64,000 nucleotides of DNA from the NCBI RefSeq assembly GCF_003334405.1, contig NZ_QOWM01000011.1. One strand, written 5' to 3'. The translations under genes and the position numbers were made by a program. Origin of the DNA: Escherichia coli. Lineage in GTDB: Bacteria; Pseudomonadota; Gammaproteobacteria; Enterobacterales; Enterobacteriaceae. Below the pieces are notes generated by a model. The model did no database searches. It saw nothing but the letters and a program-made list of their open reading frames with translations, and was not told the DNA's origin. This document shows positions 15,303 through 15,406 of this stretch, piece by piece (the first letter of the stretch is position 1; each line of letters opens with the position of its first letter).

Positions 15303-15406
15303 GTCCCCTCGCCCCTTTGGGGAGAGGGTTAGGGTGAGGGGAACAGCCAGCACTGGTGCGAACATTAACCCTCACCCCAGCCCTCACCCTGGAAGGGAGA
15401 GGGGGC
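15303..15406. repeat. GC-rich intergenic repeat pair (CCCTCACCC / GGGAGAGGG units), same family as 22777-22817
   Basis: 15303-15342 GTCCCCTCGCCCCTTTGGGGAGAGGGTTAGGGTGAGGGGA and 15368-15406 ACCCTCACCCCAGCCCTCACCCTGGAAGGGAGAGGGGG; the first unit is the reverse complement of the motif downstream of cstA. Confidence 0.55.

Follow-up and report, generated by a model that had tools for sequence, protein, structure and literature searches.

What are the short GC-rich units that lie between fepB and entC, and again between cstA and ybdD, in Escherichia coli, and what do they do? We addressed this question in a stretch of 64 kb of E. coli DNA (hereafter the window), in which a reading made from the sequence alone had noted three such units, one of them beside a REP element. 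That reading had likened the units to an intergenic repeat family that it could not name with certainty, and had supposed that their position, next to Fur-regulated promoters and at operon ends, might affect mRNA stability or mark recombination points.

Three intergenic units of the BoxC family

The window consists of K-12-like DNA: adding 609273 to a window coordinate gives the MG1655 coordinate, and only two positions differ from NC_000913.3 (622000-634000) over 12 kb. The three GC-rich units exist as the sequence-only reading described them, with coordinates off by only 0-4 nt, and the gene contexts that it gave, fepB(-)/entC(+) and cstA(+)/ybdD(+), agree with the gene coordinates. All three units are intergenic on the gene map of the window. 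They belong to BoxC, alias PIT, alias TMECO ("intrastrand triplex motif"), a catalogued repeat family of E. coli; the detection was therefore correct, and it is of nothing new in kind. The genes and units are listed below, with the evidence for each unit in brackets.

14281-15237, minus strand: fepB, with its GTG start codon at 15237
15306-15341, plus strand: unit A, BoxC/TMECO type A with one stem mismatch (catalogue, consensus, HMM, triplet test)
15306-15315, plus strand: block 1 of unit A, CCCTCGCCCC, followed by the loop TTT
15319-15328, plus strand: block 2 of unit A, GGGGAGAGGG, followed by the loop TTA
15332-15341, plus strand: block 3 of unit A, GGGTGAGGGG
15368-15403, minus strand: unit B, BoxC/TMECO type B, inverted relative to unit A (catalogue, consensus, HMM, triplet test)
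15612, plus strand: start of entC
20621-22726, plus strand: cstA
22778-22814, minus strand: unit C, BoxC/TMECO type A, degenerate in K-12 (family HMM, strain comparison)
22846-22875, plus strand: REP element GCCGGATAAGGCGTTCACGCCGCATCCGGC, a separate repeat family, 31 nt from unit C (inverted repeat)
22909-23106, plus strand: ybdD

In each unit, a C-rich block precedes two G-rich blocks that mirror each other. Unit B reads CCCTCTCCC TTCCA GGGTGAGGG CTG GGGTGAGGG T on the minus strand, with a T.T mismatch in the Watson-Crick stem, and unit C reads CCCTCGCCCC ACC GGGGAGAGGG TTA GGGTGAGAGGG on the same strand. The third block of unit C carries one substitution in K-12, at 22781 (T on the plus strand), a position at which the orthologues from O157:H7 and SW070910 have C and an intact motif. 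An alternative description of this block, as containing a 2-nt insertion, was ruled out by the same two strains, from which it differs by the single substitution.

The family name has changed over time. BoxC was re-described as PIT (potential intrastrand triplex) and later as TMECO (Holder et al. 2015, PMC4666352), following an earlier BoxC/PIT literature (Bergler 1992; Bachellier 1996/1999; Hoyne and Maher 2000, 2002, as cited in PMC4666352 and PMC2267715). TMECO units are dispersed, strictly intergenic and non-coding, occur in E. coli, Shigella and the Enterobacter group, and are scattered beside genes of all functions; MG1655 contains 23 strict copies, 13 of which have the same G.A stem mismatch of the commonest type (PMC4666352). 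An independent survey likewise includes BoxC among the known stem-loop families of E. coli, finding 22 copies of about 50 bp by its own method and citing 56 bp and 32 copies from the older literature (PMC2267715).

Within this catalogue, unit A is identical in sequence to no. 7 of Table 1 of PMC4666352 (MG1655 624579-624614, type A with one mismatch) and unit B to no. 8 (MG1655 624676-624641, type B). Supplementary Table S2 of that paper places both between fepB and entC. Together they form the published inverted pair "7 + 8", one type A unit (second loop TTA) and one type B unit (CTG). Unit C is absent from Table 1, and the accessible part of the supplement has no cstA/ybdD entry; it is missing from the MG1655 catalogue because the K-12 substitution at 22781 breaks the strict pattern. 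K-12 unit C illustrates that catalogues built on a strict pattern overlook degenerate members, which can be recovered with a profile.

The match to the family is far beyond chance. The published consensus, CCCTCNCCC-N3-6-GGGNGAGGG-N3-GGGNGAGGG (PMC4666352), has 27 specified bases and is matched exactly by units A and B, with 0 matches expected by chance; unit C misses it by the one substitution, and its O157:H7 orthologue meets the pattern. A family profile HMM, built from the 23 published MG1655 TMECO sequences, gave only three significant matches over the 64 kb, to units A (1.1e-12), B (2.9e-09) and C (5.7e-09). Together with the identity to rows 7 and 8 of the published table, these matches supply the family name that the earlier reading could not give with certainty. 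When the three units were aligned, mean column identity was 81% over 57 columns. The window contains 13 copies of the 9-mer GGGNGAGGG, where 1.1 would be expected; 0 of 100 shuffles reached this count, and 8 of the 13 copies fall in the three units. A genome-wide copy count, which the earlier reading had proposed, revealed a dispersed family: blastn with 15290-15420 found matches in 5414 of 5426 complete E. coli genomes, at a median of 17 places per genome, and 99.9% of the places are chromosomal (plasmids, 53/84470). That the similarity might be mere GC-rich low complexity, with no true consensus, was the outcome that the earlier reading had itself named as refuting its observation. The Watson-Crick folding energies of the single units are indeed ordinary for their composition (z -0.15 to -2.3), but a 27-base consensus with none expected, HMM E-values down to 1e-12 and a conserved spacer and flanks (see below) already refute this explanation, to which we attach practically no probability.

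The REP element adjoining unit C, also noted by the earlier reading, is real: it is an inverted repeat (22846-22875), has a sub-threshold Rfam match to the REP-derived naRNA4, and is multicopy in genomes, a query containing it matching at least 40 pieces per record in 2975 records. The BoxC units are rightly set apart from it. They have no similarity to the REP at 22846-22875, the naRNA4 match comes from the REP only, and a REP consensus stem-loop (of the GCCGGATG...CATCCGGC type) was found in none of units A, B and C. At the gathering threshold, Rfam matched no family at either locus; at an E-value threshold, the matches at the two loci besides REP/naRNA4 were chance miRNA-precursor hairpins, far below the gathering threshold.

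A larger composite and its alleles

Units A and B are set in a larger palindrome in the window, to which the cstA-ybdD locus is related. The features of this composite are as follows.

15268-15450: 183-bp imperfect palindrome, made up of unit A, spacer, unit B and outer arms (inverted repeats, allele comparison)
15265-15267 and 15451-15453: TAA flanking the 183-bp element
15273-15296 and 15429-15452: outer arms of the palindrome, 24 nt, 71% complementary
15342-15367: spacer between units A and B, AACAGCCAGCACTGGTGCGAACATTA, conserved in other K-12 inverted pairs
22731-22745, plus strand: remnant of the third block of the partner unit, AGAGTGAGGGGGGGA, starting 5 nt after the cstA stop codon
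22746-22777, plus strand: spacer-like sequence (composite HMM alignment)
22815-22834, plus strand: conserved flank of the type A unit, GACTGACCGAGCGCGTTGAT, common to other K-12 copies

By alignment of K-12 copies, the inverted pairs at hrpB-mrcB, ygfF-gcvP and alx-sstT have the spacer and the flanks in common besides the cores, and the two units at lldD-trmL, which are in another arrangement, do not align with the other K-12 inverted pairs. A composite HMM, made from three other K-12 loci and none from the window, matched 15274-15409 on the minus strand (E 1.8e-35) over 137 model positions, running straight through the spacer, and 22744-22834 on the plus strand (E 5.8e-14, model positions 73-164). 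Because an HMM from other loci matches each of them, both loci in the window hold one type of element, "B unit - spacer - A unit - flank". The cstA-ybdD copy is a 5'-truncated composite, consisting of a B unit without its first two blocks, plus unit C; in the predicted RNA fold, 22731-22745 pairs with block 3' of unit C.

The 183-bp element lies some 30 nt ahead of the fepB GTG, and is predicted to fold as single-stranded DNA into a single long hairpin (-39.8 kcal/mol, z -4.3). It is the unit of presence and absence at fepB-entC. The long allele occurs in 2755 of 5426 E. coli genomes, and the remaining genomes, O157:H7, ATCC 25922 and W224N among them, have a short allele that lacks exactly 186 bp, equal to the 183-bp element and one of the two flanking TAA; the short-allele junction was derived by eye and with outgroups. 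Two junction SNPs (AAGGT vs GAAGT) track the presence or absence of the element, a linkage that suggests a single origin of the element at this site. A query with a synthetic junction returned 5389 records, and among the 40 rows sampled (best identity 97.9%) all short-allele matches carry both SNPs and no short allele has K-12-type flanks. This points to two old haplotypes at fepB-entC, not to frequent recent excision, although a few exceptions may occur among the 5389 records. The site is empty in E. albertii and in two other Escherichia lineages; in E. whittamii it is filled, with the same ends and a centre collapsed to a simple hairpin. Two strains have smaller changes, namely a 6-bp slippage-type deletion within unit A (10_253) and a 7-bp duplication that affects the outer arm (EC31).

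The distance of about 30 nt to the fepB GTG leaves no room for a promoter, and a promoter scan found no promoter-like site within the 183-bp element, nor within the cstA-ybdD element; fepB mRNA of the long allele must therefore contain the element. From this geometry, rather than from a mapped start, we infer that the element sits in the fepB 5'-untranslated region. A literature search for papers on the fepB leader or transcription start site found nothing useful. The K-12 fepB leader accordingly carries a 183-bp palindrome that is missing in about half of the species, which matters when enterobactin-uptake regulation is compared between strains.

The cstA-ybdD locus is also variable. O157:H7 has an intact unit and the REP, K-12 has the point variant of the unit, SW070910 has the unit without the REP, and CFSAN061768 and the Escherichia outgroups have the REP without the unit. 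In the B2 strain E2348/69, blocks 1-2 are lost and the right flank (22815-22834) is kept, indicating that this allele is a deletion derivative.

Alleles at other loci suggest how such losses may occur. Two units in inverted arrangement place 9-bp direct repeats on one strand at the base of the hairpin, about 64-75 bp apart, these being block 1 of one unit and block 2' of its partner; in the window pair, GGGAGAGGG occurs at 15320 and 15395. Because the blocks recur as direct repeats in this position, replication slippage between them could delete the pair or reduce it to a simple hairpin. At alx-sstT in strain GN04530, the 75 nt between copies of CCCTCTCCC are lost, and at hrpB-mrcB in strain 7_14_50A, the 64 nt between copies of GGGAGAGGG; each of these collapse alleles leaves a single hairpin. 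They suggest slippage as the probable deletion mechanism, one that needs no triplex in vivo and that would give a concrete basis to the "genomic instability" that the literature ties to TMECO. Raised local variability around TMECO loci was described by Holder et al. 2015 (PMC4666352), who also noted the "palindrome effect" that these single-hairpin alleles display. The suggestion that the units mark recombination points is thus borne out in so far as both loci are indel-polymorphic in E. coli and variability around the motifs is raised.

Structure, function and spread

The alias of the family refers to a triplex, and the three units have the sequence required for one. We scored Watson-Crick Y:R pairs together with antiparallel G.G, A.A or T.A third-strand contacts, and found full triplets at 9/10 positions in unit A, 9/10 in unit B and 8/10 in unit C, against a maximum of 6 in 300 shuffles per unit. 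Since Watson-Crick folding of the single units is unremarkable, the structural claim rests on this explicit triplet-rule test. In the proposed fold, the pyrimidine block would pair with the first purine block, and the mirror-image second purine block would lie in the groove as a third strand, making G.G:C, A.A:T and T.A:T triplets. In vitro, the isolated G-rich TMECO strand forms a very stable intramolecular triplex by CD and NMR, the type A mm oligonucleotide melting at 74 C; the published control oligonucleotide is a G-to-C mutant of exactly the sequence of unit A (PMC4666352). When the complement is present, TMECO DNA is an ordinary duplex, and DMS footprinting in vivo found no protection and no triplex footprint (PMC4666352). 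The structure that gave the family its name may therefore be irrelevant in cells.

Whether the relevant structure could instead be a G-quadruplex formed by the G-rich strand, be it DNA or RNA, deserves consideration, in that units A, B and C are the only canonical G3+N1-7 motifs on either strand of the 64-kb window. Purine-motif triplexes are moreover impossible in RNA (PMC4666352), so that a transcribed G-rich strand could form only a hairpin or a quadruplex. However, the full oligonucleotide gave 18 sharp imino signals by NMR, which its authors read as a triplex (PMC4666352), and the neighbouring C-rich block competes for the G-rich strand through Watson-Crick pairing. Guanine N7 is accessible to DMS in vivo (PMC4666352), which argues against triplex and quadruplex alike. 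We consider a quadruplex improbable as the relevant structure.

Our best explanation is that the units are BoxC elements, most probably structurally selfish or near-neutral DNA that lacks any regulatory job specific to its sequence, and that their best-documented consequence is local instability. Near-neutrality is here a deduction, and "selfish" is a label, not a mechanism. In the window they do not stand alone: units A and B make up the two halves of the 183-bp palindrome, placed by geometry in the fepB 5'-untranslated region, and unit C, which is point-mutated, belongs to a truncated copy of this composite between cstA and ybdD. Earlier work, as summarised in PMC4666352, found neither promoter nor terminator activity and no effect on RNA polymerase. 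A scan for GC-rich stem-loops followed by T-runs found no terminator-like site in 15200-15650 or 22650-22950.

The most direct regulatory alternative is that the units form part of the Fur regulatory architecture of the divergent fepB-entC promoter, a link to Fur-regulated promoters having been proposed in the earlier reading. The site concerned is the following.

15564-15582, plus strand: Fur-box-like site ATAAATGATAATCATTATT, 15/19 to the consensus, 161 nt from unit B

The units do lie within the Fur-controlled fepB-entC intergenic region, and the Fur-box-like site overlaps promoter-like hexamers on both strands. A Fur consensus search at 3 or fewer mismatches passes over this entC box, which has 4; the same search found the fepD-entS site at 12929. 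The 159 bp adjoining entC, which include the Fur-box-like site and the promoter-like hexamers, have one variable column among five aligned E. coli sequences, whichever allele is present, and the element is missing in about half of E. coli and in E. albertii, indicating that it is dispensable for the promoter region. The family is moreover found beside genes of all functions, and no Fur site was found at the unit C locus. The proposed link to Fur looks incidental, and as a regulatory role it is effectively refuted by the natural deletion alleles, leaving it highly improbable.

A role at the RNA level, which would give substance to the supposed effect on mRNA stability, is harder to dismiss. Transcription must run through both elements, one lying in the fepB 5'-untranslated region and one in the cstA-ybdD spacer, and the mRNA would gain strong hairpins. 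The palindrome could modulate translation or stability of the fepB leader, and unit C with the REP could shield the cstA mRNA at its 3' end or reduce read-through into ybdD. By its geometry, long-allele fepB mRNA must contain the element, and the predicted fold of this leader is one long hairpin (z -3.6). Further support comes from relatives. The short cstA-ybdD spacer contains a GC-rich hairpin in nearly all Enterobacteriaceae examined. A hairpin with the BoxC-like stem CCCTCTCC/GGAGAGGG is found there in Citrobacter, Salmonella, Kosakonia and relatives, with a variant stem in Klebsiella; the same stem recurs at the orthologous position in about 30 species of about 12 genera, and other species have a full TMECO, a pair, or a REP-like hairpin in this spacer. 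Citrobacter and Salmonella have no second hairpin of the BoxC-like kind within 21 kb, and compensatory changes occur in 4/7 predicted pairs of the cstA-ybdD hairpin. Conservation and compensatory changes together suggest selection at the RNA level for a hairpin at cstA-ybdD, a role that unit C with the REP may fill in E. coli; we regard this as a lead, not a result. At tauD-hemB and adk-hemH, too, some strains have the BoxC-bearing spacer and others an unrelated one with a terminator-like hairpin.

Against a role as RNA hairpins stand the earlier tests, which, as summarised in PMC4666352, gave no terminator or promoter activity and no RNA polymerase effect, and the occurrence of units in both orientations at one site in different genera. 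About half of E. coli lack the fepB element, no T-run follows the stems in the window, and the predicted fold of the cstA-ybdD RNA is ordinary for its composition (z -1.2). We therefore hold a function as transcribed hairpins to be possible but on the unlikely side.

We also considered how the copies arose. The filled and empty fepB-entC alleles, with inverted arms and a TAA on each side of a 183-bp indel, could mean that a MITE-like element, bounded by terminal inverted repeats, transposed into the fepB leader and duplicated a 3-bp target, TAA. This would fit the clean difference of 183 bp and a second TAA, the inverted outer arms (24 nt, 71% complementary), the ends common to other composites, the lack of an insert at this site in E. 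albertii and in two other Escherichia lineages, and the junction SNPs that suggest a single origin. The presence of the same stem mismatch in 13/23 K-12 copies argues for copying from a master sequence. However, a 3-bp repeat is on its own weak evidence, and other loci show replacement in place of insertion. The BoxC-less alleles of hrpB-mrcB, adk-hemH and tauD-hemB are unrelated replacements and not empty sites with a duplication; the short allele of hrpB-mrcB has a different junction sequence, and its long allele even provides the stop codon of hrpB. The differences at ygfF-gcvP in B2 strains extend over the whole neighbourhood. All five other loci compared (hrpB-mrcB, alx-sstT, ygfF-gcvP, adk-hemH and tauD-hemB) have collapse or replacement alleles and no clean empty site. 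We found neither a transposase nor a clean target duplication at most loci examined; we know of no cognate transposase for the BoxC composite. The motif is almost absent from plasmids (53/84470 places), and its patchiness, filled in E. whittamii and empty in E. albertii, is just as compatible with homologous recombination having exchanged alleles. Such exchange, of whole intergenic alleles, accounts for the pattern no worse than a MITE would, and we consider transposition into the fepB leader doubtful.

Elements of the transcribed-hairpin and insertion explanations can be joined. BoxC might spread as palindromic "hairpin cassettes" of about 140-185 bp that enter or replace spacer hairpins at gene 3' ends and in leaders. 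In K-12 and roughly half of E. coli, one of these would have inserted as a discrete 183-bp unit some 30 nt before the fepB start, duplicating TAA, and the CCCTCTCC/GGAGAGGG hairpin at cstA-ybdD would be a functional RNA hairpin and possibly a source or target of the spread. We offer this as speculation that is more probably wrong than right. If true, the K-12 fepB leader would be a derived and heavily structured variant, with post-transcriptional behaviour unlike that of O157:H7 or B2 strains.

The elements among known repeat and structural families

We examined the wider distribution of the family in 80 entC loci retrieved from other Enterobacteriaceae. These loci contained 55 strict TMECO motifs, which occupy several further intergenic positions within the ent-fep cluster, in Enterobacter, Lelliottia, Leclercia, Silvania, Phytobacter, Kluyvera, Pseudocitrobacter, Pantoea and a further Enterobacteriaceae lineage. 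None was found in the Citrobacter, Salmonella and Klebsiella loci of this set, and TMECO has been reported to be absent from Salmonella.

Measured against the published BoxC/TMECO family, the units of the window agree in their consensus, in the Y-R-R three-block layout, in the inverted pairing of A and B, in their intergenic sites and in copy number, and unit C, of which other E. coli strains have an intact version, fits the family profile. They differ in three respects. A single base keeps K-12 unit C from matching the strict published pattern. Unit B has the second loop CTG, not CCG, and contains a T.T mismatch, although the published table lists it as free of mismatches. The composite described here spans at least 137 bp with conserved spacer and flanks, whereas the published core is of 34-37 nt (PMC4666352). 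The additions to what is known are therefore small, comprising an uncatalogued degenerate copy, the anatomy of the composite, a polymorphism of the fepB leader and the slippage alleles.

REP/BIME elements are, like BoxC, short, GC-rich, palindromic, strictly intergenic, transcribed and often found at gene 3' ends, and the REP and the BoxC unit are each present or absent independently among strains. The two are unrelated in sequence, and REPs are about ten times more numerous than BoxC. REPs have known partners and a mobilising transposase family, RAYT; to our knowledge, no mobilising transposase is known for BoxC.

The fepB-entC element resembles MITEs and ERIC/IRU in being a 183-bp non-coding imperfect palindrome with inverted ends, a clean presence/absence pattern and a possible 3-bp duplication, and also in its position within a transcribed leader, as deduced from geometry. 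It differs from them in that the target duplication is not reproduced at other loci, and in having no similarity to ERIC and no Rfam family.

Finally, among structural motifs, the mirror-image purine blocks of the units obey the G.G:C, A.A:T and T.A:T rules of H-DNA and purine-motif triplexes, and each unit is also a canonical G-quadruplex motif. In contrast to H-DNA, in which a long mirror repeat is unwound, the third strand of the units would come from the same strand, beside the hairpin, the arrangement to which "intrastrand" refers.

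G-quadruplex motifs and other matches in the window

We identified only three canonical G-quadruplex motifs (four runs of at least three G, with loops of 1-7) on both strands of the 64-kb window, and these are exactly the three BoxC units.

15319-15341, plus strand: G-quadruplex motif, unit A (fepB-entC)
15369-15389, minus strand: G-quadruplex motif, unit B (fepB-entC)
22778-22801, minus strand: G-quadruplex motif, unit C (cstA-ybdD)

The top match to the Fur-box consensus in the window (16/19) was found at 12929-12947, in the divergent fepD-entS intergenic region, and the Fur-box-like site near entC, at 15564-15582, reached only 15/19. 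Four Rfam matches at gathering level were additionally identified, none of which is related to the BoxC units.

865-906, minus strand: ES036
29434-29527, plus strand: STnc70
34740-34848, minus strand: rnk leader
47834-48276, plus strand: cspA-type thermoregulator

Variation between E. coli strains

In K-12, unit C carries a T at 22781, whereas O157:H7 and SW070910 have C at this position. This single T disrupts one third-strand triplet of the unit, and places the K-12 sequence outside catalogues compiled with the strict pattern. Upstream of unit C, the spacer-like stretch contains a near-tandem 10-nt duplication (GATGTTGGC / GAATGTTGGC, 22744-22763), which is missing in strains CFSAN061768 and E2348/69. 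The REP adjoining the unit (22846-22875; comparison locus L012) also varies in presence by strain, SW070910 being without it; its score against the REP-derived Rfam family naRNA4 (38.2 bits) was below the gathering score of 59.5.

Within the 183-bp fepB-entC element, we noted a 7-bp duplication of AATGACA in EC31 (L004, at 15273-15279), and a 6-bp deletion of AGGGTT inside unit A in 10_253 (L005, at 15325-15330). Both are small variants of the slippage type.

Differences were also identified at other BoxC loci. At hrpB-mrcB, the BoxC composite lies so close to hrpB that the stop codon changes between alleles: the long allele uses TAA, the short one TGA (L006, MG1655 164000-165200, versus L096). 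The tauD-hemB (L099/L103) and adk-hemH (L100/L102) spacers of K-12 each contain a single BoxC unit, in place of which other E. coli strains have unrelated spacers with ordinary terminator-like hairpins. The differences at these two loci are whole-spacer allele swaps, rather than clean indels.

Distribution across the Enterobacteriaceae

The cstA-ybdD spacer (22727-22908) contains a GC-rich hairpin in nearly all Enterobacteriaceae sampled (L018-L091; for example L021:17276-17338, L029:17127-17189 and L052:13414-13461), frequently with the stem CCCTCTCC/GGAGAGGG, whose carriers include Salmonella and Citrobacter. In these two genera the hairpin is the only one of its kind in 21 kb, and no strict TMECO was found within the sampled loci. 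In other genera, the same spot is occupied by a full TMECO, a pair, or a REP-like hairpin.

Several further ent-fep intergenic sites with strict TMECO were identified in Enterobacter, Lelliottia, Leclercia and relatives (L035-L092), at around -5.4 kb, -1.2 kb and +4.85 kb relative to the entC start (for example L039:4603-4647, L039:19586-19665, L041:8809-8841 and L040:14846-14878). The motifs in Enterobacter and relatives often form tail-to-tail pairs with a gap of only ~10 nt, and some overlap.

Unit B and its published label

The unit at 15368-15403 (unit B) is labelled 'B', without mismatch, in Table 1 of the published MG1655 list (PMC4666352). We found a T.T mismatch in this unit, with block 1 CCCTCTCCC set against block 2 GGGTGAGGG, and its second loop is CTG, whereas the type-B loop is CCG.
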